Origin: Psammoneis japonica
Taxonomy: Eukaryota
DNA: 64,000 nt
Reading direction: 5' to 3'
Assembly: GCA_008632985.1 (NCBI GenBank)
Contig: QPGO01000054.1
Span: 281,050-345,049, forward strand
The notes below the pieces were generated by a model. It was not told the DNA's origin and made no database searches. It worked only from the letters and a program-made list of their open reading frames with translations. Below, piece after piece: positions 4,380-28,812 of this stretch (position 1 is the stretch's first letter; every line of letters begins with the position of its first letter). Position numbers and translations under genes: made by a program.

Positions 4380-5115
4380 ACTCGGAGAAAGGCGATTGCA
4401 GCAAATGTCGGGTTTTGCTTTCCCACCAAAGACTTCCCCGTCGTCGGACTAAACAACGTGACCAGCTGCGTCCGCATCAACAAGAACCTGCCCGCAGTCT
4501 CCATGATTTTCGGCTGCTTCCATCAAGTCTTCACCTGACTCTGTCGACTGTGCTTGCACATCGATGATGAAAACAATGAAACAAGAGACGACTCGCTCTG
4601 CACAAGGATGAGACGCATCTGAAATGAGGGAGCTCTTCTGCCCCACATCCCACAAATGTCCGGCGTGCGAGGAGTGGTGGTCCAAACGTTGTGCTTTCAA
4701 TTCTGGGAAAAGAGATGAGTTTTGGTTGTTGTTTGGTGGCATTTTGGATTTCATTTGGCAAAAGAAAACCTGTTGAATTGTGTGCTTTGTCCTTCTTTTC
4801 ATCTTGGCTGCAGGCAAAGCAACCTCCATCCATCAGGAGCACAGGCTCAAAGCCATTGATGGTCAAACACTCTGCTCTGCCCTCAACAAGCCATCTGGAA
4901 GGATGCCTTCAGAGACAAACCTGTTGCAAGAAGCAACAGATGACAAAGACTGGGTCTGTTGCATCTGAACTTTCTCCAAGATGAGTTGGCAATCCTTCTG
5001 CAGCTGTGGGAGGCAACGGAGGGCAGAGCATCAAGGACAATCCTTTGGCCCCACTTGGCACCTCACCACAGGCCATCAAGGAGGTGGAGGCAGGCTTGCC
5101 TTGGGTCAGAGCACT

Positions 5116-5146
<31 letters not shown>

Positions 5147-5147
5147 G
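4380..5147. repeat. Copy 1 of a ~750-bp direct repeat (copy 2 at ~6003-6758), ending in a (CT)n tract; TpA-depleted
   Basis: Aligns nearly base-for-base with 6003-6758, from actcggagaaaggcgattgc to gcacttgatttct. Many differences are CG/TG/CA/TA exchanges. Confidence 0.92.
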
Positions 5148-5499
5148 AACAACAAAATCGGCGCAGCCGATTTTCCGTCAAACATGACAAACAAAGAACA
5201 AGAGCAGCTGGGGCAGAGCCACCAGTTCGGATGTTTGTCCAACCATTTCGACAAATGGCAGGCACAACAACGTTGGCCAAAGTCAGGAGTGAGACTTTCA
5301 TGGTGGCTTCATCAGCGGCCAGCTGCTGTTGTTAACGTGGTTGAGGTTCTTGTTGCGTTAAAAAGATCCAAGTGGTGGAGGACAGGCGAGTGGATTCAAT
5401 GGACTGGATTTGAGTCATTCATCGTGCTGTCTCTCTCTCTCTCTCTCTCTCTCTCGTTGGCCTCCCTGTTTGCAACCCAGCAGGACGAAACTGGGGGGC

Positions 5500-6003
5500 C
5501 GGTGGAGGTGCAAAGGACACAGTGCCAAAGGAGGTTGCTGAGGTTGCACGACCGATTGCAACAAACGATCATGCACTCCAAGCCAATGCGTTGTCAATCG
5601 TGGTTTCGAGTGTTGGCAAGTGGTTGAGAGCAGGGTGGAGAGGCCATCGTTCCTTTCCAAATCTGTTGCAATTTGCTCAATGGTGGGTTGTTTGGATGAT
5701 GTGGGACGTGCAGGAAGATGGGGGATTGGTCTGGGGCGCTTCTGCTGTTGTCGCGTTGCCCCAAAGACGGTTGCGTGCCTTTTGAAAAACGGGTTGGAGC
5801 TTGCTGGGCTTGCAGCCTCAAGCAAGCAAGCAAGTGATGGTGAAAAAGTTTCATCTTCACTTTTGTGTCGGTTGGGTCTGAGCAAAGGTTCTTGAAGCGG
5901 AAGAGCATGCCCACAATTGGGCCGGTGAGCACTCCAGGTGGGTGAGCTGAGTGTGGTGGGACATGCAGATGTAAATTCATCTCTTTCTCACAGAGAGCGG
6001 TGA
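5500..6003 (-). mobile_element. Degenerate fragment of a Penelope-like retroelement (RT C-terminal/thumb and linker region)
   Basis: Translation LCEKEMNLHLHVPPHSAHPPGVLTGPIVGMLFRFKNLCSD...FLHVPHHPNNP...MIVCCNRSCNLSNLL resembles the PLE pattern LYEK..NLYLY.P..S.HP...R...CS...HLPYHP...Y.R..NL..LL, with Tyr replaced by Cys/His. Confidence 0.65.
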
Positions 6004-6758
6004 CTCGGAGAAAGGCGATTGCAGCAAATGTCGGGTTTTGCTTTCCCACCAAAGACTTCCCCATTGTCAGACCAAACAACGTGACCAGCTGCGTCCGCAT
6101 CAACAAGAATCTGCCCGCAGCATCCATGATTTTTGGCTGCTTCCATCAAGTCTTCACCTGACTCTGTCGACTGTGCTTGCACATTGATGATGAAAACAAC
6201 GAAACAAGAGACAACTCGCTCTGCACAAGGATGAGACGCATCTGAAATGAGGGGGCTCTTCTGCCCCACATCCCACAAATGTCCGGCATGGAAGGAGTGG
6301 TGGTCCAAACGTTGTGCTTTCAATTCTGGGAAAAGTGGTGAGTTTTGGTTGTTGTTTGGTGCATTTTGGATTTCATTTGGCAAAAGAAAACCTGTTGAAT
6401 TGTGTGCTTTGTCCTTCTTTTCATCTTGGCTGCAGGCAAAGCACCATCCATCAGGAGCACAGGCTCAAAGCCATTGATGGTCAAACACTCTGCTCTCTGC
6501 CCTCAACAAGCCATCTGGAAGGATGCCTTCAGAGACAAACCTGTTGCAAGAAGCAACAGACAACAAAGACTGGGTCTGTTGCATCTGAACTTTCTCCAAG
6601 ATGAGTTGGCAATCCTTCTGCAGCTGTGGGAGGCAGTGGAGGGCAGAGCATCAAGGACAATCCTTTGGCCCCACTTGGCACCTCACCACAGGCCATCAAG
6701 GAGGTGGAGGCAGGCTTGCCTTGGGTCAGAGCACTTGATTTCTTTCTCTCTCTCTCTC
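6003..6758. repeat. Copy 2 of the ~750-bp direct repeat
   Basis: See 4380-5147; also terminates in a (CT)n run. Confidence 0.92.
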
Positions 6759-6759
6759 T

Positions 6760-9700
6760 GGAGTTGTTGAAGTTCTTGTTCAAATGTCATGCAAGCCTGG
6801 TTCTGTTCACAACAAAATCATGAATTTCAATGACACCCATGACCCAAGCAAGGAGATCACATTGAGCAAGCTGTGAGGCCACTGGAGCAAAGTCATGGCA
6901 TCTCGCAGAGGGCTGACTTGTGCTCTTGCCAACATCATCAAAGCCAGCAGTCCAATGAGATAGAGGGAACTTCTTGTCATTTCTGCTTGCAATCTTGTCT
7001 CATGACAGCTGCTTCAATTGAGCTGCAAATTGGCTCAAGAAATTCTCAGCTTTCAGTCTCAGATGCCTGCTCCCAGCAGCAGAACAGAGAGCACTCACTC
7101 AAAAGCTTTTTAGATTGTCAACAATCAGCTGGGTGCAGACAAACAACAACTTTTCACCTGGGAAATGTGCCCAACCTTTGCAGCTTGTGGGGCAGCTTCA
7201 GCTGTTGGCAGCTGCCTCAATTTTGCCACACATTGGTGCCATTGGTGTCCAAGCCTGAAGATCATCACCTGCTGCTGGAGGCCCCTCTCTGTTCTAAAGT
7301 TGGCTGGTTTGTTGCAACTCTGACACAACAGGGTGACTCATGGTGCTGGTTGGGATGCTGTGGTCAACATGAACCAAACCACTTGGCTTGAAGCCCCTGA
7401 CCTCCTGAAAGTTGTCATGAATTTTCTCCTGGAGCCAAAATGAGGAACTGTGCTTAGATTGCCAATGCACTTGCAATGCTTTGCCCAAGTGAGATTGTGG
7501 GCTGGAGGAGTGAAGTGAAGTCATCCAGGACTTGTCAAGAATGGGCTTGGATGTCCGCTCCAAATGTGTGGCTTTTGGCAGCTCTGGGTGAATCAGAAAC
7601 TGTGTGCTTGAGCAAAAGCAGGTTTAGGCACAAGCATGCACAAAGATCCAGAAGAGTTTTTTGTGGACATTTTGAGCCAACAGGCAAACAAGTGGACCAC
7701 GCCATTTGTGCATCCAATGCTGCCCAAAGCACTGGCACCACACATGGCTGGCACCATGCTGCAGAGCACCAGCCATGCTGTGGTGGAAGTGGTTGGATTT
7801 GGACAAAAAGCAAGTGGCTCATCCACACACAATTTCTGAAGAGGAAACCAAAGATTCATCTCAAGCGCACCTCTGGTGTGGCAAATGCAGCACAACTCAG
7901 TGCCCTTTTGCTGGATCCTTGTTGTGTCAAAGTCCTGTTTGTGTTGTTCACTGTGCATGATGACTGCCATTCTTGCAGAGTCAATGCACAGAGAAGACTT
8001 GGCCAGCTTGGCTTGATTCTGATTTTTGACAACATTCATGCTCTGTTGCCTCTCATGGGAACACACGGCTGGGGAAACCTGTCAGGCAGCTGTGGAGCAG
8101 ATGCCAAGTGGCACCCATGGACCAGGTGTGCAGAGTGGTTGGGCTTTTAACCTTTGTTTCCTCCTTGCCATCATCCTTGCATGAGTGCAACCCTGAGAGT
8201 GCCCTCAGAGCTCAGCACTTGTTGAGGCTGGGCTGTTGCACAATTTTTGTGGTGGAAACTGCAGCAGCTGTTGTTGGAGACAGCTGCTCCCACCAAGTGC
8301 AGAGGCAAGCACAAATTTGTTTTGTCTGGCAGCTGGTGACAAAGTTTGGCTGAACAGACCACAGCTTCAGCCCACTTTGCTGGCTTCCACAGGCAAAACG
8401 AATGGCTCTTGCCTTGCAGACTGTGACTTGCAAGCTGTGCTGGGTTGTTTTTGAGTGGGTCCTCCCATGAAAACAAGTGTTTTTTTTGTCATTCAGACTT
8501 GCTGGGCTGTGTTCAAAAGAGGACATTGTCATTGACAAGCTGTGCTGTGGCCGCTGGCAGTCCCCAAACTGCATTTGGCCTCTGTTGGGGGAGCTTTGCA
8601 AAAGAAATCCAAAAATTTTTCATTTGCCTTTTGGGAAGTTCTGGGGAGACAGGCTGGCAAGGATCATGCATGCAAGGATCATGCAAGTGGCAGCCCCTCA
8701 AATTTTGTTGACTTCAAATGTTTCTCTGTGGCCCGTGACACTGAGCATTGAGAGTGAGCTGTTGAGGGTGACCAACTGATGAGTGGAACAAACAAAGGAG
8801 GTCATGTTGATCCACTGCAGCATCACCCATCCCTCACCTGTGGTGGGGCCTGACAGCTGATGAACTGTGCTGCCATGGTCACTGAGGTTCTTCTGATGGC
8901 ATTGTGCAGCCATTGTGCTCAAGCAGCGCTGGATGTGAGGACAATGATTTTGATTTGCTGTCAGCTCCACGTGCTCTCAAAAGATCTCTGTTGGTGCAGC
9001 AGCAATTTCTGGGAATGGCAAAAGCATTGACAGACAAGACCATTTTTGGACATCTCTGTTGGGCATTCCAAGTGATCTTTGAAATGCCTCACAGGCCACT
9101 TGGCAATTGCCGCAGCACCACTTGTGTGCCTCCTCATGGAACCCCAGGTGTTTGCAGCTGATGGAGCTCCTTGGGTGCTCGCTTGTCAGACATTTTTTTC
9201 TCAAAATCATCCAGCACGTGCTTTGCAAATTTGGAACTGTGAATTGCTGCATTGCACATCATGGACTCTTTGGTGCAGCTGGGCACCATCTTCGTCAGGT
9301 GCACATGGCAGCCCACCAGCCTGACCACACAGTCCTTTGCAGTGAACTCAGCATCATGCACATGTTGGGGTTGTCTTTTCCTTGCACAGCAAAAAATCAG
9401 CCTTTTTCTTTTTTCTGTCCTTTTGTTCCTCCTCTTGGATGGAGTTGATGTTGGACATGATGATGTCCATGTGCACCAGCCATTGCAAGAGGTTGCTGAG
9501 GGGCAAAGTGATGGATCAAGTCATTTTTGTCACAGCATCACATTGGTGCTTCACATGACATGCCACCAACTCCACCGTTGATGAGAAGCTGTGTGGAGAC
9601 CATGGCGCTGCTTGGAAATCTGTGGAGATTTGCTCCTCCTCACTTGTCCTCATGGCACAGATGTTGTCTTTTGCTCAAATTCTTGCCCCAGTTGAGACTC

Positions 9701-9970
9701 CAAGAGCCAACAGATGAACTTGATTTCCCTGCTTGGCACCGTCAATGATGGGCCGACCACCTTGCTTCTTGGCAGGTGGGCACAGCTTCCAAGAAGCCCT
9801 TGCAACATGCTGGTGCTGGAGACACCTCCTTTGCATGCTGCTTCTTCAAGCTGTCAAATGCAATGGACATGACTTGCACCAAATTTTGTTCTTCTCATCA
9901 ATTTTGCAAACTGAGCAATGTGTGTTTCCCGCCAGAGAAACTCGAAGACCTCTGCTTCTCTCATCAGCAC
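6760..9970. mobile_element. Heavily degenerate, unidentified repeat/TE-derived DNA depleted of both TpA and CpG; host of the copia insertion, continuing at 17089-~18050
   Basis: No credible ORF and extreme TA/CG scarcity. The copia TSD shows that 9970 and 17089 were contiguous. Family not recognisable. Confidence 0.45.
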
Positions 9971-10246
9971 TGACAGAAATTGAAGGCAAATGGCAAGAAC
10001 TCAAACAACAACTCCTTGCTGCTGTCTAAATGGCAGATGAGTCTCTGCTCAGAGACCGTCACAGGAGCCGAAAGACGTGTGAGTTGGTACAATCAGGCTG
10101 CTGTTGTCATTCTTGTGAGCCTTGTGGCTCGAAAGCAAACTACATCGCGCGCGAACGCGCAGAACTAAAGCACACAAAACTGTGCGCGGCAAACCAAACA
10201 GCGCGCGACATTTCGCGCACACCCAAATCCTGTTTAAATCCTGTCA
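9971..10246 (-). repeat. 3' LTR of the copia element
   Basis: TG...CA ends; preceded on the minus strand by a purine-rich tract (AAACTGGGGAG, 10247-10257); about 23 substitutions relative to the other LTR. Confidence 0.95.
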
Positions 10247-10259
10247 CTCCCCAGTTTGC

Positions 10260-13200
10260 TTGATGAGTCACAGAAACAGATTCGACTTCGGATGGAATGA
10301 AGTTCCAGAACATGAGGGGGCGGAGAAGGTCCCAGATTTGGGAGCAACCCCAATGCTTGCTGAGAATGTCAGCAGGGTTGCGGGAGCCTTCGATGAAGTG
10401 GAACTCAAGGCAACCAGAGGCAATTGCCTCACGCACACGGTGGAACGACAATGCGGTGTGTCGCTTGTGTAACTTGGAGTGCGGGATGGTGGCACTGTCT
10501 ACAACCGACTTGTTGTCACCGAACATGTAACTGACATTGTGGATCGGGATGCCAAGGTGGCGCAGGGTGATGCGCAGATCGACAATCTGCTCGACACAAG
10601 TCCTTGCGGCAACAAATTCAGACCCGCAGGTCACAGTCTCCACGGTGGCTTGCTTCTTAGAGAACCAATCAGCCGGGAATTTGTTGAGGAAGTGGAGCAT
10701 TGCCATGACAGAGCGTCCGGTGAGCATGCAATGGCACAAGTTTGCATCGACGTAGTGGGTGGCAGTGACGAACTTGCCAAGGGGCGGTGGAGCGTCCTTC
10801 GGGATCATCTCTTCTGCTTCGCCATGCATGGAATGCATCCATTCATGGGCCGGAGCAGGGAGATCCAAAGAGTCGGGCTCTTCAGCACGAACGCGGAGAG
10901 CGCCGTGTCGCATCTTGGAGAGGTAGCCACAGACGCATTTGGCACGGTCCAAGTGGCCTTGACGGGGCACAGCTCGGAAGCTGGAGAGTGACATGACAGC
11001 CGTGGTGATGTCAATTCGACCAAGGGACACTGCCCACTGGAGTGAACCAACAAGAGACTGGAACTTGTGAATGCCATCGGGCCCCAGCAGTTCGGAAGTG
11101 TCCAGTTCGGGGTGGTCACCCTTCTCCAGAGGTGACAGGGCATTGGTGGTGGGTTTCTCCCCAAACAGTCAGGCGCAGCTGTCAACCATGCGCTTGATGT
11201 GCTTGCGCAGAGACAGGTGCAAGGTTCCGTCGGGATCCCGGGAAAAGTCGCAACCCAGATGGAACTCAATGGGTCCCGCACCCTTGAGCTTGAACTTGCA
11301 CTTTTCCGTGAGAGCATCGACGAAGGATTGAGGGTCCTTCACAGCAATGGCGAGGTCGTCCACACAAACGGCAATGCATTCACAGTGGTCGCCGTTCCTG
11401 CGCATCCAAATGTTGGGTTCGGCGCGGCAGGGGAAGAATCCTTCAGCTCGCAGGCAGTCGGCGAAGCGCTCGTGCCAGCGAAGACCAGAGCTGCGCAGTC
11501 CACACAGGGCCTTGTGGATGACAAGGATGTGTCCCTCGAGTTTGCCAAATTCGGGTCCGGCTACAATGTAGAGCTTCTCCTTGGTGGTGGCTTCAAGGCA
11601 GGCATTGCCAATGTCGGTGGCCCATGTCTCTAACTCGTTGAGTTCGGCCAGGAAAATCATCAGCCGAAGGCCACGGAGGGAGACCACTCCAGAGCAGACA
11701 CTGTCGACAGGTGCGTCCGTGAGGTGCCCATCGGCTACGAGTCGTGCCTTGTGGCGACCGTCGTGTTTCACGTTTCACACTGGGTGCACTCGGATCTTCT
11801 TGTGTCCCGCAGGAGGAGTGGAAGACTCAAAGGGCCTGCAGTTGTGGAAGACTTGGCATTCCTCGAGTTGATCCATCTCGAGGTTAGTTGCGTCTCCCCA
11901 TTTGCGGTTGCCGTTGCGTTCGTCTAGTGACATGGCGTGTTTGCAGTTCCGGGGAACTTCGCATCCGTACTTGCAGCGAGGTGCAGTGCGGAAGGAGCGA
12001 AGCTTGGCTTGGTTGGCCATGCGAAATGGCTTCTTTTGGCGCCTCGCGATGGTGCAGAACCGCTTCCAGCCATCAGTGTCGAGAAGTCCATTCTCTCGTG
12101 CATAGATGGCGCAGGTGACGGGGTCGTCCTTGGCAATGATGGCAAGAGGCTCGGACGTGATCTCCCCACTTTCCCATTCAAGCATGATGTTGTAGCTTGA
12201 GCCTTTCCAGGTTGGGTCATGAGGCTTCAGAGGTCCTTCGTGTGACACGATGCGTCGAAATTTCCAAACAGCAGTGTCTTCGTCTTCTTGCTCAATGTGA
12301 TTCATGATGTCGTTGCAGGCAAGGACTTCCTCGCATTCGTCGTTGTTGACAGAGCAGACGAACTTAGTGAGCTCAGGATTGCCGTTCACTTTCCATTCGT
12401 GGTCTTCGACGGCCTTGACGATGCGAGCTCTGTGGCGTTGTCCGTCCTCTTGTGGCTGCATGAGGAAGGTGCGTCTGATGATGTCTTGCGGATCGAAAAC
12501 TGGCATCTTGGGTGTCCTGATCTCCCCATCAGGAGAGTCAACGGGGTTGTCGTCATGGCAAGATTTGATGATGGGTTCAGGTGGCTCCCCATCAGGAGGA
12601 TCAAGACGCAGGTTTCGAACGGCAGGATTGGTGGCAGCGGAGCATGCGTTGGACCGGCAGAGGATCTTCTGAGTCTCGTCAGAGAGAATCTTGAAGGTCA
12701 TCTGGTGGCCGACGTGCTCAGCAATGCCAACAAAGCGTCCACGCAACTCACGGGATTCGGACGGCCAATCGGAGTCATCGAGGTGGAAGCACACGGGTTC
12801 CCACCAGTGAAAGCGAAGCAATGGGCTGATGTCCGGGGTGGAGCCAGCAAGAGTCTCGAGGGGTGTGCGCCAGTGGAGACGTGGGGATGCTGCATGGTTG
12901 AGTGTGAAGCACACATGCATGAGCGCCAGCAGCCATGTGTGGGCGGGCGAACCAAAACGATCCATGACAGTGTTCACCATGCGCTTCACGGTCTGGTGTC
13001 GACGCTCGGCAAAGTTTTGGTGTTGCTGGTGAGGCTCACTTTGCCAGCTGGAGATGAAGAGGGCTCGTAGGATCCCGAGCACCTTGTTGCTGATCTCAAC
13101 TTGAGCACGGTCGCCAATGAGTTTGGATGGGGCACCACGCTCACGGATCTGATCCTCGAGTGTGTTGACAAACTCCTTGTCCGTCTTGGTGCCGCAGACG

Positions 13201-15863
13201 TCAGTGACGGTAGACTCGGTGCCAACAAACAGTTGGGTGCTGGTGCAGCCAGAGTCGACGGCCGGGGTGTCAGCACAAACTGTGTCAGTGGCGACAGGCT
13301 TGTTGCGGCGGTGCACATTAAGGGCGGGGTTGGGTGATTTGCAGGCCTTCCTAAGGTGTGCACCGGCGGGCATGCGGGCGTGCTGCGTGGTGCAGTCAAA
13401 AGCACGACGGACCGCATCGGCAGGCAGGAAGCCAAAGCAAGGCCGAAGAGACTCGAAGGGGGGGTCCTTGGGTTGCACAGTGCGCTCCGGGGGCAGGACG
13501 TCGTCGTCCTTGGGGTCAATCGCGTGTAGATGACACTCGTAGAACACGTCGTCGTTCGGAATGAGGTGATCATCAAGGGCTGACGCGTGATCGGCAGACA
13601 AGGAAGCGGACATGATGGTCTCGTTGACAACGACACGATGACGGCAGTTGCCGCATTCGTCAAATGGGTTGGCAGTGGGATCGTCCTGCAGGTCAGAGAT
13701 CGCGTCGCACCACTGGTCGTCGTCAGTGACAGAGTGATCGAGGACGGAAGGATCCCATGTGTCATCACCGGTGAGGATGACATGGGGCAGGGTGTCCCAT
13801 TCGGCGTCAGTGCAAGGTCGCATGGCAACATGAGGCAGGCCACCCTTGATGTCAATGGGGATGACACAGCCATCAGGGGTGGCAGTGCGTTGCAAGCCGT
13901 TGGGCACCTTGACAGAGTGATCGTTGACATCCTGTTTGTACCATTCGAGCTGGCCGCAGGAATGAATGGTCTTGCCCTTGCCCATGCATGCGTGCTGATG
14001 GAGGATGGCGATGACGGGACCACGCTGGGTCTCAATGACGGCACCAGCGGTGACAATGGGGATGTCCACCAATTGGTGGTCGTCAATGCCCTGAACGTCG
14101 ACTTGGCGAGAGGTGCGTGCAATGACGCGAACGTCGTCACCAGCAATGCCGCCGTTGGCCCCACGATCGACTAGAGCACCAGTGCGTGTGGAGCGATGAG
14201 CAGAGGCAGAGCAAATGACATTGTGGTCATTGACGCGGCGGCAAGTGCGGCCGTTGAGTTCCATGTCATCGGCAGGAGCTGGCGGAGTAGAGGGAGCGGC
14301 AGATGGCCCCGGTCGACTGGCATTGGGGGCTTGGTTAGGAGACAACAGACGTTGTAGATCACCGGGTGGCAGTGGCTTGCGCTTGGTGAGGTGCGCCAGG
14401 ATGGGATCATCCGGAGTGGCACCCACATTTGGAGCGGGGTCACCAGAGTCAGCAGGAGTCGTGTTGGACAAGTTGACATCACCGTCACTCCCAAGGCGTT
14501 GGTCGTGAAGGTTGGCCGTAACAGACTCATGGTGGTTGCTGGCTCGCGGGTTGCGGGGAGGCGGACGAGAATGCTCAAGGATGATCGCCTTGGAGAAATG
14601 GGGCAACGAATCCCAAATCCGCTGGTGGTCGGGAGGGAGACGTTTCCATTGGTCACTGGTGAGGCTGGGACCACGGGTGCAGGCAGCATTGGCCTGAAGG
14701 ACGTCAATGTCACTGTCAATGTCGCAGAACACATCGTCGGACGGTTCCTCGGAGCAGACGTCGTGTGCGTGTGTGGCACGTCGGGGAGCTCGAGGTGTCG
14801 TCTTGGGTTGAAACGCACTGTCGCATTGAGCCGCCACGGAGAGAAGCAGGCCACAGCATTGATCGCATGTGAGGCTCTTGCCACTCTGCGTGCGATGCTG
14901 ATCAGCTTGGTTCTTGACAGCACGAAGTTCCTCGACAGGGTGTGCGGCATTCTCGAGCATGACGCGCTTCTGTCCTTCAGAGAAGTGGTCACTGGCCGGG
15001 ATGAGTGCCTCGCACTTGCGCAACTGATCTTGCCAATGAAGGATGAACCCGTGGGTCGGACCTTTCCAAGTGCCATCACCAAGACGTGCGGTGGTGAGGT
15101 GCGTGAGCAAGGTGGAGGTCTCGACAGATGCGCGGGTGGAGGCGAGCGCACACTCAGACAAGGCGCGGCAGACGGTCTGAGTGTCAGAAGACCCCACATT
15201 TTCGCGAATGAGAGCCTTGCCCTTGTCGGTGAGAAGAATGCGTTCGAAGACGGCGAACATGCACTTTTGCTGTTCAGCAAAGAGCAGTTTGTCTTCGGGG
15301 CTGGTCAGTTTGTACGACGAGTCTAGAATGCACTCGACGTCTTGGGCACGGGCTTGTGCCACAAGTGAGGTGTGCCAAGTGTGCCACTGCTTGTCGGATT
15401 TGAGAGCCATGAAAGCGGTGGGGTCACGCTTGATGCCTCGCTTGAAGTCTCGCACCGGGTCGCGTGCCTTGGTCGGGTTGGTGACATGCGGAGGTGCGAG
15501 GGGTGAGCTGCCGATGGACACAGAAGACATGCAGTCGGGGCTGAGGCGGCAGGCAAGGAACTCGTCATGCGTGAACAATGAGGAGTCATTGGCAACGTCA
15601 AGACCTTCGTGTGCTTTGACAATGTGCAGACTGATTAGAGCTGCTAACACGTTCTTATAGCCGCGGGGCAAAGGGATCACATTAGCGCCGTTGTCGCACT
15701 CAAGCGAGTCGATTTGGGATGGTGTGAACGTGAACAGTTCTTGACACAAGTCCGTGCCGTCTTGGGTCAAAGCCAAACAAAGAGGGCTCCCAGCACCTTG
15801 GGCAAGCACGGTTCCAACAACGTGCTCGAAACCATCGGTTTGTTGCTGACGAGTGAGAACCAT
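10260..15863 (-). pseudogene. Copia gag-pol polyprotein in a single frame with two in-frame stops (11775-11777, 11169-11171) and mutated catalytic motifs
   Basis: Protease LVDRGANGG; integrase VATDTV, SEPHQQHQNFAERR; RT KHDGRHKARLVADG, DIGNACLEA, CVDDL; RNase H YVDANL, GSEFVAAR, FGDNKSV, NPADILSK. The three track ORFs (11775-15893, 11169-11771, 10140-11030) share one frame; the original stop position is uncertain. Confidence 0.93.
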
Positions 15864-16807
15864 GGCAGACAAAAGTGGTGTCAGGACAAGCAATTCTTGT
15901 TGGGAAGTGAAGGCAGTGAAGGCAGACTTGAAACTTGGGTGAGAACAGACTTGACTTGAAATGGACTTGACTTGAAATCTTGAACTGCCTTAAAATCAGA
16001 AGTCGCCGGGCTTTGCTGTCCCGTTCGTTGTCAAGTGCTAAACTTCCTATCCGGTCCGTAGAGTTGTGCCGGCACGTCCGCACCCGCAGCCAGTGGCGCT
16101 TTGGGTTGCTTACGAGTGGAGCAGCGGGTTGTAAACCCCTGCAGGCAAGCTGACTGGAGGTGGACAAGACCCCCGAACCGTTCTCATTTTACATCGGTTG
16201 GATTTCCCGATCAGGCTGGCCAGTTGACGCAGGCGTCAGGCGCTGTGGACGAACGAACAAACACGGGAAAACACCCTCGCCCCAACGTAGGCTGCAATCA
16301 CGGCTGCTTGCTCTCACAGTCATCCTCGTGGACCTGGCAGAACTGTGGAGCACCAGCAGTCTGGGGCAGATCAGGTGCAATGGACTCGGCGTGCTTGTAG
16401 AGTGGCAGCAAAGCCGCAGTCCAAAGAGTGGGTTCAAGTCCTTGGCCGTGAAGATGTGCACACACACATGTCTTCAGCGACGGAGATCCTTGAATGTGTG
16501 GGGTTCTTGACCGTTAACCGTTGAATGGGTGCATCAAGGGATGAGGATCAAGGGTGGACTTGGATGTGACCGTTGATGCATGTCTTCAGCGATCAAAGGC
16601 AGTGTGATCAATCCAGATGTCCAGCGGCAAGGAGACTTGACGGTGACGTTAACTTCCTGCCGATGCCTGGCATTGAATGCGCGTGGACTTGCCGATGCAT
16701 GTAGAACACACACGGAGGTCCACGCAGAGTTGAGGTGGCGTCGTCGGTAAATCAACGACGACGATGGCGGTTGCTCAATGGGTTGACAATGAGCAAGACT
16801 GTTGATC

Positions 16808-17083
16808 TGACAGAAATTGAAGGCAAATGGCAAGAATTCAAACAATGACTCCTTGCTGCTGTCTAAATGGCAGATGAGTCTCCGCTCAGAGACCGTCACA
16901 GGAGCTGAAAGACGTGCAAGTCGGTGTGATCGGGCCACTGTTGTTGTTCTTGTGAGCCTTGTGGCTCGAAAGCAAACTACATCGCGCGCGAACGCGCGGA
17001 ACCAAAGCACACAAAACTGTGCGCGGTAAACCAAACAGCGCGCGACATTTCGCGCGCACCTGAATCCTGTTCAAATCCTGTCA
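16808..17083 (-). repeat. 5' LTR of the copia element
   Basis: Colinear, indel-free match to 9971-10246; flanked by TSD AGCAC. Confidence 0.95.
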
Positions 17084-18031
17084 AGCACAGGACATGGCAC
17101 ACACAGCAAAACTGTCTTCCTTCCTTGTTGGAGCTTGCAAGACCAAATGACATTTTGTTCTTGCTGCAGGCAGCAGTTGTCAAGCGACTGCTGATCTTGC
17201 CATTGACGCGAGTGAACAAACGACAGCTCATGACGCCTGCATGCAGCCACCACCCATCTGCCCAGCACGGCCTTCACTTGGAGAAAGCAGCCAGCAGCCA
17301 GCAGAGAAAACTCTCTCTAGAGAGAGCAGAGGCCCCTCGAGTGGAGAAAACTCTCCAATGGAGCAGAGGCCCCTTTACATGCTCGAGCTGCAGTGCTCGC
17401 ACGCAGCAGGCAGCACTGCAGTGCTGCAGCAGTCGCACCTGTGACAGTGTCTGTCCATGACACGTTGGTTGTCTGGGCTGCTGCAGGCTGTAGATTTCGG
17501 ATTTCCAGATTTCGATCAACACTCTGGGGGAAGATGACTCCAGCCAGTTTCTGGCTGAAAAACGTCTGCTCGTCAGTGCGTTTGGGGGTTTTGCCAGTGC
17601 AATTTTTGTGTGCGCAAAAGACGTCGAGTCTGTCCAGCGCTCGCCAAAGCCCCCCAACGCACAGATTGACAGACTTTTTCAGTGCAAATTCTACACAAGA
17701 TTCTTCAGCCAGCAGCCACGAGACCCAGGCCTTGAGCAAATCCAAACTGGCGAGGCAGGCGCGCTCCGGATTAGCCCCACTCGGGCAAAAAATGGAGCCA
17801 CTCAGTGGCTCGCAACTTGCGCAGCGTAAAACTCGCAACTGACACAACAAAGCAGCACCCACACAGATGCAACCTTTTAACAGAGGCAAAAAGCCATTGT
17901 TGTCAATGCATTGTGTTGTCAGCCGCCACTCGTGTGTGGAGCTCGGTCGCCGTCAAATCACCGTCATGGTCGTTGGCGGTGATTTTCTCACCCCATGGAA
18001 ACAACCGCAGGGCAGTGCCAGAAAAAAATGT

Positions 18032-18433
18032 CGAACCATTGGGCAGTTCGCTGCGTAGACAAGTGCCGGGAGCCCCGTAGAATTGGTGAACCATGAGGTG
18101 GTTCGGGAGGACGAGCGTAGAAACATGCGTGGTAATTTGCACCAGAGGGTCGAATGCAAAATTGAACCAGAAAAATGAGGCTCACGATGAACAAGACGGC
18201 AGCAGTACGGAGAAGTTTAAGAACATAGTAAACCACTAAAATAAAGCATACTTATTGTCAAACAGACGTTGCTGTATCGACTGATGTAATGTTATTGTAG
18301 ATGTCTCATCATCTTTTACACTTTTACCCATCGTCTATCGGTTCGTTTTTGGCTTGCCGCGAACCACTTGATGGTTCGGGGCAGGAATCGCGCGCATTCG
18401 TGAGTTCGCGCGGCGAACCACTGCATGGTTCGC
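18032..18433. repeat. Four spaced palindromes GAACCA-N5-TGGTTC
   Basis: 18033-18049 (right arm CAGTTC), 18088-18104, 18361-18377 and 18415-18431, each with a 5-nt spacer. Confidence 0.75.
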
Positions 18434-19930: not shown

Positions 19931-21016
19931 ATGAACCAGTTTAGGACGATATCACTGTTTGCTCTTTTGTGTACAATGGTATTTTCAATTGCAAGAGCCT
20001 TTGTGTTTTGTGGGAATAATCGACAAGCTGTTCAGAATCAGCATCGTTGTTCAGCACGGCAGTCACTGCGATGGCACACCAACATAAGATCCACCCTGAC
20101 GACAAGAATCAGAAGTAAGCAAAGTATTGGGATACCCTAGGGTTTGAATATATCTGTCTGTCGCTCTAACATTTCGTTGCCTTCGCGGTTAAATCTTTGT
20201 GATACTTATTATTCAGCTGTGCGGTACCAAACTCCATACACAATCAACGATAGTATTTGTCCACCGACCGATCGAGATGTGCTTCGCAGTGTCGTTTCCA
20301 AACACGTTGAAACCTTGGATCGGTATACAAGTCAAAAGCCGATTGCGGCTCACACGATGGAATCGTTTCAAGCCGTCAAGGAATGGATGGAGCAATCTAC
20401 GGGTAAACTCGAGGGAATCATTATGGACAGTGGGTGTGGGACGGCAAAATCCACTCTAGTCTTGGGCAAGCGGTATCCGAACCATTTTGTGATTGGAATT
20501 GACAAGTCGCTTGCGAGGCTCAGTCGTAATGAGCATTTTGAAGCTGACGATACTACTACTACTCCAGCGGCGATACAACGTGTATCGGGTTCACCCAATG
20601 TTGTCTTGGTCCGGGCCGAGTTGTCTGACTTTTGGAGATGCTGTGTCAATCACCAATGGACCTTGGATAAGCATTATCTGTTGTATCCTAATCCTTATCC
20701 TAAAAAGGCTCGACTCAAGAGCCGTTGGTACGCGCATCCAGCCATGCCTCTGATTTTAAAACTCGGTGGCGATATTATCGTTCGATCCAATTGGGAAGGA
20801 TTTCTGCAAGAGTTTGCGCTGTCCATCCAATACGCAAGTGACACAATACAAGATGGTGATGAGAATTATGCACAACCGTATGTTCAATCCTTGCCAAGAG
20901 AGCCTGTTCCATTGTCCAAGAGCGATACAGCGAAAGTTCCGTGGACCAATTTTGAAAAGAAGTACATTGATTGCGGTGAACCAATCTACGAACTGCAAGT
21001 CCCTGTTGCTAGATAA
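19931..21016 (+). CDS. trmB: TrmB-like tRNA (guanine-N7)-methyltransferase, probably organelle-targeted; one intron (~20114-20216)
   Basis: Signal-peptide-like N-terminus ending ARAF; DSGCGT, IGIDKS, LYPNPYPKK..KSRW, VRSNW, TNFEKKY motifs. Confidence 0.8.
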
Positions 21017-21261: not shown

Positions 21262-23079
21262 TCATTCTGCATTATTTTCTCCGTCTTCTATTTCCGCCGG
21301 CTCGTCTTCACCAGTCGCGTTCGTTGCAGATTTTTGTTCTTCATTAGATGTAGCTTCGACAACCCTTCTTTGAGACTTCTTGGTCTTGTCCGCAGCATAG
21401 AATCGTTCAGACTCAAGCTTTCGGAAACTCTCTAGCTTCTCTGGGACCAGCCCCGTGGGTGTATGTTGGGAAGCAGCTTGCGACCAATATGACTTGAGCT
21501 TGCTGAATTCAGCATCACCAGGAGGCGGTAACACGGCAGGCTCCTCATCATCTGAAGGGCGCGTGACGACCGAGCCACGAAACTTCTTCGTCGTCGTTAA
21601 GGTAGGCGATGATTCCGGAGCTCCAGGCTCATTGTTTTTGTTTTCCTCATCAGTGGGGAGTGCATTTTTCAACAACGAAGGAACCTCAGTATCAACTGTT
21701 GTTTCCGATTCGTCTTTTGCTGTGGTTGAGATATCGGAAATATTGACTGCATCGTTAGCATCTGCTGACTCATTATGAATATCTGGTCGTCGACTATCTG
21801 CGACATCGTCAATGTGATTCGTGTCCTTTTTGTTTCCATCTCCTTCTTTGTTGTCGCGTTTCTCCGCTTCGTTCGCAGTCATAACTTCTCCTCGGTCGGC
21901 TTGAAGAATAGAAGAAGGAGTTGACCTCTCAGCTTGCATGTTTTCTTGCGCAGGCTCGACGTCACCGCCAGGACGTGAATCATCTAACAGATTGATCGCC
22001 TCAACAGTGACCACATCTTCTGCTCCACTACCGCGAGAGGCGCTTTTACTATTCTCGGGCTCCGTTACAGAGTAGTGGATGAGCAAACGGTCTAGTTGTT
22101 GGGTGCACAATGAGCCGTCCTCTCCTTTGGGACTTGATCCAGCAACGTCCTTTACTCTTGCAGCTCTCTCAGCTTGAAAGTTCCCCTTTCTCACCTTGCT
22201 TGTCTGAAAAGCGCTTCGTACATCAATAGCCAATACTTCTTCAATACAGAGCAGGACATTTTCTACAGTATCGTGAACAGATTCATCTCCTCTATGCGGC
22301 CCGTAAAATTCCAGACACCTGGGTTTCTCGTCCAAAATGTGTTCCAACTCCTCTTTGGCTTTTGATGTTACGACTACATGTCGACTGGTGGACAACCCAC
22401 TCTGAACCCATGGGGGGACTTTTGGCGGTGTGCCTTCAACCGAGTCATAATGTGGAACGTATGGCTTTATATCCAAAACTGGTGTTCCGTCTACCAGATC
22501 AAGACCCGAAACTTCGAGATACGTCTTTCTGCAATGCTTGGTGGGTTTCGTAACGGAGTTCAATTGGCAGAGTGTCATTCCAATAGGATTTGGGCGATGC
22601 GGTGATCGTGTGGTCAATACACCCACCTTTTCACCTCCCAAAGCGGGCGGCGCAATCTTGCTTAGCTTGTTCTTGGATACCGTGTTGAGATGAAAGCAAA
22701 ACACAACCCAAACATGAGAATATTCTTCCAAGCCCAATACGGAATCCGGTTCCACTGAAAGTTCGATCCGTCCTCGTGCGTGTGGTGCTAGCAATCCTTG
22801 CCGGGGTGTTCCTACACATAAGCGGTAAATTGAATGAACAACTCCAATGGGCTTTACCACGAGCCCGTCCTCAAACAAATCGAATTCCTCATCCAGTGTA
22901 ACTCGTCGTCTGAGCTTCTTGGCGGCTTCTTCGTTATCTGATTTATCTCCCGAATCCGCGGAAGTTGGCTGAAGCTTTGATGAAGCCAACTGGGCGGTTT
23001 TTGTCTTTACGAGGGAGCAAGCTGCAGCTGTTGCAGAAGCCAGCAAGGAAGCCGTATGAGGCATTGCTGACGATGACAT
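21262..23079 (-). CDS. TRMO: TsaA/TrmO tRNA m6t6A37 methyltransferase with a long acidic low-complexity tail
   Basis: PIGVVHS..GTPRQG, GLEEYSHVWVVFCFH, GVLTTRSPHRPNPIGMT, GLDLVDGTPVLDIKPY. Confidence 0.92.
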   Translation of the reverse strand: MSSSAMPHTASLLASATAAACSLVKTKTAQLASSKLQPTSADSGDKSDNEEAAKKLRRRVTLDEEFDLFEDGLVVKPIGVVHSIYRLCVGTPRQGLLAPHARGRIELSVEPDSVLGLEEYSHVWVVFCFHLNTVSKNKLSKIAPPALGGEKVGVLTTRSPHRPNPIGMTLCQLNSVTKPTKHCRKTYLEVSGLDLVDGTPVLDIKPYVPHYDSVEGTPPKVPPWVQSGLSTSRHVVVTSKAKEELEHILDEKPRCLEFYGPHRGDESVHDTVENVLLCIEEVLAIDVRSAFQTSKVRKGNFQAERAARVKDVAGSSPKGEDGSLCTQQLDRLLIHYSVTEPENSKSASRGSGAEDVVTVEAINLLDDSRPGGDVEPAQENMQAERSTPSSILQADRGEVMTANEAEKRDNKEGDGNKKDTNHIDDVADSRRPDIHNESADANDAVNISDISTTAKDESETTVDTEVPSLLKNALPTDEENKNNEPGAPESSPTLTTTKKFRGSVVTRPSDDEEPAVLPPPGDAEFSKLKSYWSQAASQHTPTGLVPEKLESFRKLESERFYAADKTKKSQRRVVEATSNEEQKSATNATGEDEPAEIEDGENNAE

Positions 23080-23638
23080 GATTTGAAAGTGCTCGTGGTG
23101 ATGCACCGGTGCGAATTTACTCAAGAGAAAGACACCGTTGGTGATTGCAAGGTGCATTACCGGTCACCAACCGCTGCTGTGGATTTGTGGATCTCGAAAC
23201 CCGCAGAGTTTTATCAGAGCCTTTCTTGTTTTGTTTTGATATATTTGATGACTTGATACCAATTGTTGACTCCTGAGACGAGCAAAGACAACAACACGAC
23301 ACAGCTACCGGGTGCTCTCCGTATGATAGGCAGGGAGGTGACTGCCGACTCCAGACTGTGAATAGTGGATACCGGCGCGGTAGATGGACACGACGAGACA
23401 TACATCAACATCACGATGCGATCGTCGCCAGTCACGTGCAGTCATCAAAGCTCGCGCGCACTTTCAGTCCCGCGAGAAATGTTGAATTTTCGAAAAAAAT
23501 AGCCGTGGCGACTGGCGACACGATCGCGAATCGCGGTTTGAGAGTTTCTCGCTCGTTCTTCGTTCTTGCAGCTTTTATTCCTCCCTCTTGTTGTTGGAAC
23601 AGAGTGATTATCACAATAACGACACGCGACAATCGAAA

Positions 23639-25770: not shown

Positions 25771-26918
25771 GGCAGCCCGATAGCTCTAGTATTGTAGAGA
25801 GGGCCCCGTGACTGTGCGAGCTTCCACTTCCTCCCACTTCACCGTCGGCCTATTTCTTTCGAAAAAGAAAACCAACATTTTCCCAGTCTTTATGACGAGC
25901 ACTCTCCAGGGAGAACAATGAACGGCAAGAAACCACATACACGTTGCGCCGCTGCAAGACAATGCTGCGGTGTCGTGCACCAGAAGAGTAGTCGGCAAAA
26001 TAATACCACAAGTTTAGCTTTATTATTTCTGCATCTTGTTGAGCCTTCGTACGGTAGGGTATTAGTGCGGACGGCAGCAGCAATCGACACACGACGACAC
26101 TACAAGAGCGGACTCTCTTCATCGGGTGCGACTTCGGCTAAGCGGTGGACCCCTTCCTCGACATCCTGACGGCCTTCTTGAATACATAAAAATGCGAAAT
26201 ACGCAGCCGTAATGCTAGGAACGACAGCTACAATGCTCCACGCAACTGTCGCATTTGCGACCTCCCATGCTAACTCTCCGTACTTGACAACATAAGATAC
26301 CACCAAGGTCAGTCCGACCAACTTTGCCATAAGCACGCATCGCTCTCGGTAGCAGAATCGGAAGATGGCTGCAGATTTGCCTGCTGTGGTTGCCCTGTTG
26401 GCTCTGCCTCCTCAGCATCCCTGTCGCACAGACTCCATCCATTGTGTCGAGCAATGCGATAGGCAGCAATCATAGTTGTCGTATTGCCTAGGAGCGTAAG
26501 GGCACCTTGGGCGCTGACAAGAGACTCGAGTTCGACTTTGTTGTGTGTCAAGTGATGAGTCACAGCACATGTGGACGACGCGTGCATGGGAAGCGTGCCC
26601 CAAGTTAAGCCTCTCCAAGTAAGGTTGCCAATCGCCCCGCCGTATACCCAAACCAGCTTCATGGCCACCAAGCATTCAAAGACGGATAAGAAATGGATAA
26701 TCCAAGTCGGAATCGACAGAGCATTTTTGGGTTCTGGTCTTATGGCCCAGAAGAGCTTCTCGGGAGCCCAGCAGTTGCCAACCCCAAACAAAAATTGAGA
26801 ATGTACCTCAAAGTTCCGAAAAGTTCCAACAACCACAAAGATCACTAGGAACAACGTGGCTGCCCAAGCGGCAGGCTTCGCTTTGGGGTCAAAAAAGGTT
26901 TGACTGTATGGTCTCATG
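25114..26918. repeat. Copy 1 of a 1.8-kb segmental duplication (copy 2 at 28813-30641)
   Basis: High nucleotide identity covering the ankyrin 3' part, the intergenic region and the DUF2499 3' part. Confidence 0.95.
26100..26918 (-). pseudogene. 5'-truncated, frameshifted copy of the DUF2499 (Ycf49-like) membrane-protein gene
   Basis: NALSIPTWIIHFLSVFE.LVAM..W, WRGLTWG.LP; 1-bp deletion near 26336; similarity stops at 26918. Confidence 0.8.
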
Positions 26919-28776: not shown

Positions 28777-28812
28777 CGTGAACTTGGTTTTTGACACAAA
28801 GGACTTGGAATC

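Follow-up and report, generated by a model that had tools for sequence, protein, structure and literature searches.

Why should one retrotransposon in a diatom genome be almost free of the dinucleotide TA, and why should its protein carry cysteine or histidine where related proteins carry tyrosine? The question arises from a single element in the window, which is the whole stretch of 64,000 nucleotides that was analysed. Its parts are as follows.

9971-17083, minus strand: Ty1/copia-type LTR retrotransposon, recognised from its LTRs, target-site duplication (TSD), RVT_2 domain and full-length homologues
9966-9970: left TSD copy AGCAC, the same five bases as at 17084-17088
17084-17088: right TSD copy AGCAC, matching the left copy at 9966-9970
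9971-10246, minus strand: 3' LTR in element orientation, with TG...CA ends, a direct repeat of 16808-17083
16808-17083, minus strand: 5' LTR in element orientation, a direct repeat of 9971-10246
10143-15893, minus strand: gag-pol, a single frame of 1917 codons by translation, with two in-frame TGA
11169-11771, minus strand: RVT_2 reverse-transcriptase domain with CVDD replacing YVDD (Pfam PF07727, E 3.7e-24)

The element shows all the marks of the Ty1/copia type, namely LTRs with TG...CA ends, a 5-bp TSD, an RVT_2 domain and full-length polyprotein homology. Its gag-pol is 55-65% identical to full-length homologues of 1850-1930 aa, one of which (P0121) matches 15863-10284 of the window by tblastn. 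No Pfam family for integrase or protease was found in the 1372-aa open reading frame (ORF), so the domain order is read only from collinearity with the homologues. An earlier, sequence-only reading had described the element as structurally intact with one reading frame. The single frame, the perfect TSD and the indel-free LTRs are all there (AGCAC on both sides; no gap columns over 276 aligned columns), but the frame is broken by TGA stops at 11775-11777 and 11169-11171. Other frames also hold long ORFs. A long ORF is no proof of integrity, since a process that turns TA into TG or CA deletes TAA and TAG and cannot make a new stop. The element is best explained as a dead Ty1/copia retrotransposon nested in an older transposon-like island.

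The element holds 56 TA in 7113 nt, an observed/expected ratio (O/E) of 0.165, compared with 0.61 in the window outside the depleted islands. TG (O/E 1.36) and CA (1.54) are in excess, AA is not depleted (1.09), and CG stands at 0.862, with 0.995 outside the islands. The GC content is 0.563, against 0.48-0.49 in the flanks. The 1372-aa ORF contains 7 tyrosines, 48 cysteines and 61 histidines. Over the whole 1917-codon frame, the shares are 0.57% Tyr, 3.55% Cys and 4.74% His; the means of the 120 homologues listed are 3.86% (SD 0.30, minimum 2.86), 0.92% and 3.56%. The sequence-only reading was thus right that the element is nearly stripped of TA and that its ORF has about 7 Tyr, with Cys and His in excess.

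The change runs from TA to TG or CA. Nine altered motifs had been put forward as evidence of this direction, and each of them was found: CVDD (codon TGT at 11364-11366), DIGNAC, CSGVV, KALCGL, TCGSEF, LRHLG, ERRHQ, KHWGC and VHPV (changed codon CCA). At each changed motif site, a consensus built from 40 homologues shows Tyr, or Leu in the case of VHPV. At 42 columns, 80% or more of these homologues carry Tyr, and here the window has Tyr at 7, Cys at 24, His at 7 and Phe at 4. Conserved tyrosine was therefore lost at 35 of 42 columns, compared with changes at 80 of 753 other conserved columns (673 kept).

Single changes were polarised by codon wherever 70% or more of the homologues share the residue. 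This gave 43 A>G changes, of which 38 lie 3' of T, and 12 T>C changes, of which 10 lie 5' of A. The AT>GC change is restricted to TpA, which is the context of 48 of the 55 changes. Eight relatives subjected to the same analysis had between 2 and 9 TpA-type changes apiece, which were not restricted to any context. The argument from the motif tyrosines is borne out by these counts, by the 42-column test and by contigs of the same family described below.

The neighbouring bases also appear to matter. Measured against a baseline of 27 relatives, which are only 45-65% identical and lower in GC, TA survival (observed/expected) is 1/83 for ATAN, 2/99 for NTAT, 21/84 for CTAN and 10/46 for NTAG. The His:Cys outcomes at tyrosine codons are 9:11 after a purine and 2:19 after a pyrimidine (Fisher p 0.015; small counts). 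Both sets of counts suggest that the base 3' of the mutated A is preferably T, then C or A about equally, then G.

The two LTRs show when the changes arose. Of 276 aligned columns, 253 are identical and 23 are transitions, with no transversions and no gaps. Pyrimidine-purine (YR) steps hold 22 of the 23 differences; six steps read CA in one copy and TG in the other, three CA and TA, and one TA and TG, while CG is kept in both at 16 steps. Because an estimated 16% or so of CpG copies in the LTRs are mutated, the six CA/TG pairs are not derived from CpG. The LTRs differ at these steps inside a perfect TSD, so the mutations arose in situ, after integration. Both DNA strands were affected, since both products are found: TpA became TpG by A>G in 38 cases and CpA by T>C in 10, and the six CA/TG pairs show the two side by side. 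The proposal that the process acted on both strands of integrated, double-stranded DNA is upheld by this result.

The depletion extends beyond the element. Two TA-depleted islands were found, at about 4450-18050 and at 42042-50452, together with repeats inside and outside them.

4450-9970: older island, left part; 10 TA, O/E 0.029; CG O/E 0.241
17084-18050: older island, right remainder; 7 TA, O/E 0.137; CG O/E 0.631
42042-50452: second island; 18 TA, O/E 0.035; CG O/E 0.083; TG and CA O/E 1.67 and 1.91
4380-5139, partner 6003-6759, plus strand: old direct repeat, from purine/pyrimidine-coded self-BLAST and pair alignment
25101-26923, partner 28800-30646, plus strand: host-gene segmental duplicate with ankyrin and DUF2499 genes (Pfam; self-BLAST), used as a control

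The islands are sharply bounded, with edges resolved to about 200 nt. In 1-kb windows, the 41 island values of TA O/E are at most 0.28 and the 79 background values at least 0.37, so that the two distributions are disjoint. TA density is normal again from about 18100, and the depletion is limited to the islands, the rest of the 64-kb window being normal. A transposon origin of the older islands is assumed. No curated Pfam match to a transposon protein was found in 24 ORFs of the older islands, and there was no Pfam match in 9 ORFs of 4450-9970 or in 13 ORFs of 42042-50452. A degenerate tandem array lies at about 44705-47031 within the second island.

The older island parts are also poor in CpG, with CG O/E down to 0.08 in the oldest island. 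In the polarised set, 16 of 17 G>A changes lie 3' of C and all 8 C>T changes lie 5' of G, so that 24 of 25 GC>AT changes are in CpG context. From these counts, the change of CpG to TpG or CpA is probably a second, separate process on the same islands, and is read as ordinary 5-methylcytosine (5mC) decay. The sequence-only reading had not set it apart from the TpA process. Since TA is gone where CpG still has an O/E of 0.86, TpA loss is faster than CpG decay and distinct from it. As a cause of the whole shift, 5mC decay was rejected, because it explains the CpG part and not the TA loss. The earlier statement that C>T processes cannot remove TA is sound: fungal RIP acts on C in CpA, and 5mC decay on C in CpG.

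Several explanations compete with hypermutation of integrated DNA. The least credible is that modified transposon bases were miscalled in the assembly, or that TA avoidance with CVDD is native to the family. A point for an artefact is that no sequencing platform is on record for the assembly or the runs. Read-derived contigs (four runs of one sample, possibly the assembly's own source, so not an independent check) at a k-mer depth of about 60 nonetheless repeat the TA-free island; one of 2551 nt and depth 63, covering 6714-9264, differs at 9 bases, none restoring TA. Where this copy reads TG or CA, contigs of the family hold TA; at the CVDD codon, a T at 11365 makes the triplet TAT, for Tyr, in 80% of the depth (23784.5/29829.3). 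Likewise, among the 21 differences listed for the element (of all contig differences from the window, 40 of 512 are listed), 8, at 7 sites, set TG or CA in the window against TA in the family. TA is normal in all 79 related loci (O/E 0.33-1.15, median 0.72), and so is Tyr in all 120 homologues listed (at least 2.86%). A point against the hypermutation reading itself is that even a partial signature appears, weakly, in only 1 of the 79 environmental relatives (L065), in a search of which one of the two patterns needed an intact Tyr. The much heavier loss of conserved tyrosines than of other conserved residues also counts against artefact and native composition. Very improbable, too, is ADAR-like A-to-I hyperediting of the element transcript before reverse transcription, passed on to new copies. 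In its favour are the excess of sense-strand A>G over T>C at TpA (38 vs 10) and the preference of ADARs for U 5' of the edited A (bioRxiv 10.64898/2026.01.13.699255, Discussion). However, LTRs are identical at integration, yet these two, still flanked by an intact TSD, have diverged at TA-derived sites, and the sense strand carries 10 T>C changes at TpA; on these two grounds ADAR-type editing was rejected as the identity of the process. The excess of Cys over His vanishes (9:11) where the 3' neighbour is favourable on either strand alike, and the older non-coding islands are stripped too. ADARs favour G as the 3' neighbour, which is the least favoured base here, and they are known as metazoan enzymes. 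A trigger by homology or duplication, in which being repeated is itself what exposes DNA to mutation, as in fungal RIP but with reversed chemistry, is improbable. The element family is indeed highly repeated (summed contig depth 59,000-195,000 per bin, which is not a copy number, against about 60 in the single-copy flanks), and the islands hold repeats. The host-gene duplicate, however, with 1.86 kb at 96.2% identity and copies 3.7 kb apart, was spared. Its copies have 62 TA steps in common, beside 45 transitions and 23 transversions, and a normal local TA O/E of 0.48-0.74. The process is thus independent of simple duplication, which does not set it off by itself. The older island is TA-free yet single-copy now (depth about 60; its copy number when mutated may differ), and the target in Bigelowiella natans is described as single-copy (bioRxiv 10.64898/2026.01.13.699255). 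The label "repeat-targeted", given to the process from the sequence alone, is not borne out.

Two further rivals concern the chemistry. If a TET/JBP-type dioxygenase oxidised thymine at TpA in silenced DNA, the resulting 5-hydroxymethyl- or 5-formyluracil would give T>C by mispairing with G, as 5-formyluracil is known to do. This chemistry is unlikely, although the strongest of the rivals. A T>C change at TpA is an A>G change on the opposite strand, so the sequence data fit equally well, and in dinoflagellates 5-hydroxymethyluracil (5hmU) replaces T preferentially in TA and TC, mostly in repeats (PMC11572971). Against it, there is no TpC-linked T>C here, since all but 2 of the 12 polarised T>C changes fall at TpA, and the literature consulted held no report of 5hmU in diatoms. 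The window ORFs scanned gave no match to TET/JBP domains, a result with little bearing on the genome beyond the window, and none to deaminase domains; the claim that the window holds no candidate enzyme agrees with this. More unlikely still is a passive by-product of heterochromatin, left for example by an error-prone polymerase, or by a thymine glycosylase that is drawn to methylated DNA and biases the repair of G:T mispairs towards G:C. For CTAG depletion in E. coli, one proposed cause is biased very-short-patch repair. The same islands lose CpG, as expected of methylated DNA, and methylation in diatoms is reported as mainly CpG and directed at transposable elements (PMC5124317). A by-product fits poorly with the near-absolute dinucleotide specificity, or with TA loss that is complete while CpG persists. 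In the LTRs (2 x 276 bases), at least 10 TA-derived differences face 1 non-YR difference. For this single element and its pair of LTRs, that ratio implies mutation at far more than the background rate. The B. natans process, active in only 11 of 15 lines, looks regulated (bioRxiv 10.64898/2026.01.13.699255). An error-prone polymerase is further opposed by the abundance of AA, which, as already argued from the sequence alone, speaks against a plain polymerase-eta WA signature.

The preferred reading, with a probability of about 0.8, is DNA-level hypermutation of TpA to TpG or CpA in an integrated diatom copia element, near saturation and of the kind described in B. natans. In this model, the copia element inserted into an older transposon-like island. 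Hypermutation after integration would then have turned TpA into TpG or CpA on both strands, within sharply bounded islands where the DNA is mobile or silenced. The chemistry may be conversion of adenine to inosine at 5'-T-A-3', with a TadA/ADAT2-like deaminase as the enzyme, a tentative proposal put at somewhat below an even chance. The enzyme would be guided to silenced foreign DNA through the state of its chromatin or through small RNAs, and not by sequence homology. Since conserved Tyr residues turn into Cys or His, the element would be irreversibly inactivated; a role in genome defence, as proposed from the sequence alone, is possible. It is possible, though doubtful, that a dedicated and regulated DNA editor of TadA/ADAT2 ancestry, reading 5'-T-A-(T>C,A>G)-3', is common to stramenopiles and rhizarians and old within SAR.

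The claim of a new kind of system does not stand, because the same TpA-only signature is already reported in B. natans. There, mutation-accumulation lines show TpA-only hypermutation of integrated viral DNA, with a rate of about 6e-7 per site per generation, and an ADAT2-like protein has been put forward as the candidate enzyme (bioRxiv 10.64898/2026.01.13.699255). Reverse-transcriptase and DDE domains are over-represented among the TpA-poor coding sequences of that species (Mettrop et al., bioRxiv 10.64898/2026.01.13.699255). In both cases AT>GC change occurs almost only at TpA, with TpG and CpA products on both strands, is limited to integrated foreign DNA, the remaining genome of B. natans and the remaining 64-kb window here being normal, and leaves a footprint of TpA depletion and CpA/TpG enrichment. 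The hosts differ, being a diatom (Stramenopila) here, an assignment supported by homology, and a chlorarachniophyte (Rhizaria) there, as do the targets, an LTR retrotransposon and transposon-like islands as against giant-virus and virophage insertions. TA O/E is 0.03-0.17 here, near saturation, compared with 0.45 in the B. natans region of NCLDV origin. Coupled CpG decay is found here and has no mention in the preprint's main text, and a flanking-base preference is visible here. The de novo rate was measured for B. natans, whereas here the process is known from its sequence footprint alone. The TpA hypermutation at this locus is real, appears to be new for diatoms, and is of a kind known only from this one 2026 preprint; literature searches found no diatom report, so that, as the sequence-only reading had supposed, it appears to be undescribed in this group.

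Other systems share single features with it. Fungal RIP also makes irreversible, dinucleotide-specific transitions in mobile DNA, on both strands and with sharp bounds, and inactivates coding capacity. It changes C to T mainly at CpA, raising TpA and AT, whereas here A/T changes to G/C at TpA and GC rises (0.56 vs 0.48). RIP makes stop codons, which the TpA process cannot, and is triggered by duplication, which left the 1.86-kb duplicate unaffected. Identity with RIP was rejected, since TpA is removed and not created, GC>AT change lies at CpG, and the duplicate keeps its common TA. Decay of 5mC resembles part of the pattern, as it turns CpG into TpG or CpA in the same islands, but it cannot remove TpA. 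APOBEC3 (C>U in cDNA) and ADAR (A>I in dsRNA) likewise cripple retroelements by context-specific editing. Their substrates are replication intermediates, so that the changes they make are strand-specific and the same in both LTRs, whereas the changes here are post-integration, on both strands, and independent in the two LTRs. In dinoflagellates, another SAR lineage, 5hmU is made by TET/JBP homologues that silence transposable elements; it is likewise aimed at such elements and prefers TA (and TC). It is described there as an epigenetic mark, with no mutational footprint reported in that source, while here only the footprint is seen (PMC11572971).

TpA-only hypermutation has so far been described for two viral insertions in one chlorarachniophyte (bioRxiv 10.64898/2026.01.13.699255). 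If the preferred reading is true, the process would occur widely in SAR instead of being peculiar to a single species, and transposons would be targeted, not viruses alone. It would also shape diatom genome composition, producing TA-free, GC-enriched islands whose long spurious ORFs can mislead gene callers. Dating by LTR divergence would be misled as well, with 22 of the 23 LTR differences here due to hypermutation and not to clock-like decay. A dedicated editor, if it exists, would be a GC-enriching mirror of fungal RIP that works without stop codons and faster than 5mC decay. Transformable model species exist among diatoms, and the enzyme could be sought by knock-out in them if they show the signature. 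A natural DNA adenine editor with TA context would be of interest to the base-editing field.

The old direct repeat at 4380-5139 and 6003-6759 adds one observation on timing. Its copies are 97.1% identical and both TA-free, with no TA/TA steps and only 1 CA/TG step, so the TA loss is older than the duplication. TA-free sequence is thus also heritable, and part of the copia element's internal depletion could predate its insertion. A dedicated editor may even drive transposon families towards TA avoidance, as this TA-free duplicated repeat hints.

The depletion of TA in the Ty1/copia-type element is the result of TpA-specific transitions that act on duplex DNA after integration. The element is composed of the following features.

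9971-17083, minus strand: LTR retrotransposon, defined by paired LTRs and a target-site duplication (TSD)
9971-10246 and 16808-17083, minus strand: LTRs, TG start and CA end, aligned over 276 columns with 0 gaps
Both sides of the LTR pair: perfect 5-bp TSD, AGCAC, seen as identical flanking bases
15893 to 10143, minus strand: single frame of 1917 codons with two internal TGA codons (11775-11777 and 11169-11171)
11169-11771, minus strand: RVT_2 domain (Pfam E 3.7e-24)

The perfect TSD and indel-free LTRs described from the sequence alone are thus both present. The single reading frame is also there, but it is not intact, being interrupted by the two in-frame TGA codons. Its length is no proof of integrity, because a change from TA to TG or CA destroys TAA and TAG and makes no stop from a sense codon; ORFs of 300-390 residues therefore open in other frames as well. 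Hundreds of full-length polyproteins from marine and other metagenomes (about 1850-1930 aa, 55-65% identity) are collinear with the frame. Pfam finds no domain in the element apart from RVT_2, and neither blastn nor tblastn finds further copies of the family inside the window.

The element has 56 TA steps in 7113 nt, an observed/expected ratio (O/E) of 0.165; the ratios for CG, TG and CA are 0.862, 1.36 and 1.54. Near-TA-free sequence forms two islands, at about 4450 to 18050 and at 42042-50452, with edges sharp to about 200 nt. In 1-kb windows, TA O/E is at most 0.28 in all 41 island windows and at least 0.37 in all 79 background windows; the rest of the window, outside the islands, has O/E of 0.61 for TA and 0.995 for CG. 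Within the 64-kb window, the process is confined to these islands of mobile or TE-like DNA. The part at 4450-9970 has O/E of 0.029 for TA and 0.241 for CG, and the second island has 0.035 for TA, 0.083 for CG and 1.67/1.91 for TG/CA. The element is a young insertion within an older island that has lost CpG too. Since TA is gone while CpG in the young element still stands at 0.86, two processes are involved, and the TpA process is faster than CpG decay.

None of 24 ORFs from the older islands has a curated Pfam match, and one has a sub-threshold match to IspD. The second island, free of TA and CpG, contains a degenerate tandem array (44705-47031) with TRF periods of 75 and 193, and longer periods are seen by BLAST in purine/pyrimidine code.

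The direction of change can be read from the encoded protein. The 1372-aa ORF contains 7 Tyr, so that the element is, as first described, nearly free of both TA and Tyr. Over the whole frame, Tyr makes up 0.57%, Cys 3.55% and His 4.74% of residues; the means of the 120 homologues listed are 3.86% (SD 0.30), 0.92% and 3.56%. Tyr content is normal in all 120. Together with the 79 related environmental loci, whose TA O/E ranges from 0.33 to 1.15 (median 0.72), this contradicts a natively TA-poor composition.

The frame was aligned with 40 of the 120 listed homologues, picked by rank and near-full length (41 sequences in all). The nine motif changes proposed in the sequence-only reading all lie where it had placed them, and the consensus of the 40 homologues has Tyr at these sites (Leu for VHPV). 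Tyr occurs in at least 80% of the homologues at 42 columns; there the window has Tyr 7 times, Cys 24, His 7 and Phe 4. The remaining conserved columns are kept in 673 of 753 cases. Codon changes were polarised at columns where 70% or more of the homologues agree, with a single step inferred from the window codon.

Codon-polarised changes in the element frame (type: number, context)
A>G: 43, of which 38 with T before
T>C: 12, of which 10 with A after
G>A: 17, of which 16 with C before
C>T: 8, of which 8 with G after
Transversions: 33, likely family divergence
Multi-step changes: 37, and ambiguous changes: 7, neither assigned to one step

Thus 48 of 55 AT>GC changes fall at TpA, and 24 of 25 GC>AT changes at CpG. 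Eight relatives put through the identical script show 2-9 TpA-type changes apiece without the context restriction, so that the proposed TpA context of the A to G changes holds for the window copy.

Evidence that the family itself is not TA-poor is provided by contigs derived from the reads of one sequencing run (X1). At position 11365, T accounts for 23784.5 of 29829.3 summed depth, and therefore most family copies have TAT (YVDD) where the window copy has TGT; CVDD is not native to the family. Among 40 of the 512 difference rows, 21 lie in the element: 8 (7 sites) have TG/CA in the window and TA in the family, 2 (1 site) have CA against TG, 5 have TG/CA against CG, and 6 are other. A second step from CA/TG to CG, suggested by 399 CG where 241 are expected from relatives, was rejected, because CG is the majority in the family contigs where the window has CA/TG and because only 2 polarised A>G changes come after C.

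In this run the family is highly abundant and varied: 13,563 contigs fall on window positions 9808-17067. Their summed depth of about 59,000-195,000, compared with about 60 in the single-copy flanks, is not a copy number. The unmutated state makes up 22% to 96% of depth, depending on the TA site.

Two LTRs of one insertion start out identical. The LTRs of the element now differ at 23 positions, all of them transitions, with 0 transversions and 0 indels, and 22 of the 23 lie at pyrimidine-purine steps. The paired states are CA/TG 6, CA/TA 3, TA/TG 1 and TA/TA 2, and for steps linked to CpG, CA/CG 3, CG/TG 3 and CG/CG 16. CpG is intact in both LTRs at 16 steps and has mutated in one or the other at 6; on these counts, CpG decay is estimated to yield only about 0.3 CA/TG pairs. 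Six are seen; these pairs must therefore go back to TA steps that changed separately in each LTR, to CA in one and to TG in the other. The intact TSD speaks against a chimeric origin from two elements. Because the differences arose in situ, RNA editing and reverse-transcriptase error are excluded as the main source. Action on integrated double-stranded DNA, as originally proposed, is supported both by this divergence after insertion and by the presence of TG as well as CA products.

An error of assembly or base calling was considered and rejected. A read contig of 2551 nt (k-mer depth 63) spans 6714-9264 with 9 differences, 0 of them restoring TA, and so reproduces the TA-free state; its reads come from one sample, possibly the assembly's own source. 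The four sequencing runs belong to that one sample and one study, and their library type is not on record.

Two duplications in the window bear on the trigger. They were found by self-BLAST in purine/pyrimidine code, which is blind to transitions.

25101-26923 and 28800-30646: host-gene duplicate, 1.86 kb (ankyrin, DUF2499)
4380-5139 and 6003-6759: old direct repeat, 97.1% identical

The host-gene copies are 96.2% identical, with 23 transversions, 62 TA steps common to both and normal TA O/E. Duplication alone is therefore no trigger. The sequence-only interpretation is partly supported overall, and its targeting to repeats and its role in genome defence remain putative. Transitions between these copies lie at pyrimidine-purine steps in 34 of 45 cases, including 15 of TA versus CA/TG, unpolarised. 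In the old repeat both copies are TA-free and differ at just one CA/TG step, so that TA had been lost before the duplication took place. The alternatives are the copying of an already mutated element and the evolution of TA avoidance in a family.

Among the 79 environmental loci, L065 alone is TA-poor, and only partly so (a metagenome contig of 2561 nt, O/E 0.33). It has Cys or His at 8 of 22 conserved Tyr and retains 91% of other conserved residues. Its AT>GC codon changes, 9 of TpA type and 6 other, form a weak spectrum, and it is not counted as a second case; it may show an incomplete form of this process in a different population. L073, L003, L011, L017, L007 and L022, among other loci, have CpG O/E of 0.10-0.24 yet TA O/E of 0.49-0.64, near or somewhat under the median of the 79. 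CpG decay without strong TA loss occurs in other hosts.

Conserved Tyr became Cys (A>G in the sense strand) and His (T>C) in a ratio of 24 to 7, which could suggest an intrinsic strand bias. This was dropped in favour of an effect of the 3' neighbour, given the split by preceding base: His:Cys is 9:11 when a purine precedes the Tyr codon, giving the opposite-strand A a 3' pyrimidine, and 2:19 when a pyrimidine does (Fisher p 0.015). Surviving over expected TA is 1/83 for ATAN, 2/99 for NTAT, 21/84 for CTAN and 10/46 for NTAG, these being small counts against a distant baseline taken from tetranucleotide frequencies in 27 full-length relatives. Conserved Tyr codons still kept are mainly CTAC or GTAC, so C-TA is truly resistant rather than newly made. 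Tentatively, these contexts suggest that the process treats both strands alike and that its preference for the base on the 3' side of the mutated A runs T, then C about equal to A, then G.

A precedent for the process is found in Bigelowiella natans. According to the available part of a preprint (bioRxiv 10.64898/2026.01.13.699255), 231 of 302 nuclear point mutations in 15 mutation-accumulation lines were located in two regions of integrated viral DNA; of these 231, 230 were A>G or T>C, every one of them at TpA. The rate was about 6e-7 per site per generation, about 1000-fold over background, with hypermutation in just 11 of the 15 lines. The long-term footprint there consists of clusters poor in TpA and rich in CpA and TpG, reverse-transcriptase and DDE domains are enriched in TpA-poor CDS, and the authors put forward an ADAT2-like protein as the candidate enzyme. 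The main text of the preprint uses none of the words diatom, CpG, context or trinucleotide. In the accessible full-text literature, including work on Phaeodactylum histones, the Cyclotella methylome and diatom retrotransposons (2009), no report of a TpA signature in diatoms was found. The diatom hypermutation is thus real and, as supposed, without a description found in diatoms, but it is not a categorically new system: it belongs to a kind first described in 2026, from B. natans.

To our knowledge, every natural substrate of the TadA/ADAT2 family is an A after U33 of a tRNA. On that basis, and because the same enzyme class is named in the part of the preprint available (bioRxiv 10.64898/2026.01.13.699255), the leading reading, with a probability of roughly 0.4-0.45, is that silenced chromatin would recruit an enzyme of the TadA/ADAT2 type, and that this enzyme would deaminate adenine at 5'-T-A. 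Oxidation of thymine at TpA is an unlikely alternative that has a parallel in dinoflagellates, where, as far as the accessible text goes, 5hmU takes the place of T with a preference for TA and TC, is located mainly in repeats and silences TEs (PNAS 2024, PMC11572971). A passive repair bias in heterochromatin is slightly less probable still.

In line with the first reading, the window ORFs scanned contain 0 deaminase or TET/JBP domains. Three genes are of RNA-modification type.

21262-23157, minus strand: TrmO N-terminal domain
60910-63354, minus strand: Trm732-like
20141-21013, plus strand: Methyltransf_4

None of the three is a deaminase or dioxygenase, and they have no visible link to hypermutation. 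The tRNA-modification genes of the window (TrmO, Trm732-like, TrhO-like) are ordinary housekeeping genes. Other eukaryotic genes include actin and light-harvesting (Chloroa_b-bind) genes and more, with long, mostly unbroken ORFs. The named relatives of the RUS/DUF647 gene (56804-57781) are all diatoms: Odontella aurita (56%), Fragilaria crotonensis (51%), Mediolabrus, Conticribra and Amphora. By this homology the organism is a diatom rather than Bigelowiella, without a close relative among the names in the database. The TrhO-like gene has a different set of relatives and does not help to place the host.

58089-59147, minus strand: TrhO-like (UPF0176/rhodanese) gene, best database matches bacterial

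It is 64% identical to Pseudomonadota proteins, with diatoms absent among the 120 matches listed, and may have reached the diatom genome from bacteria.
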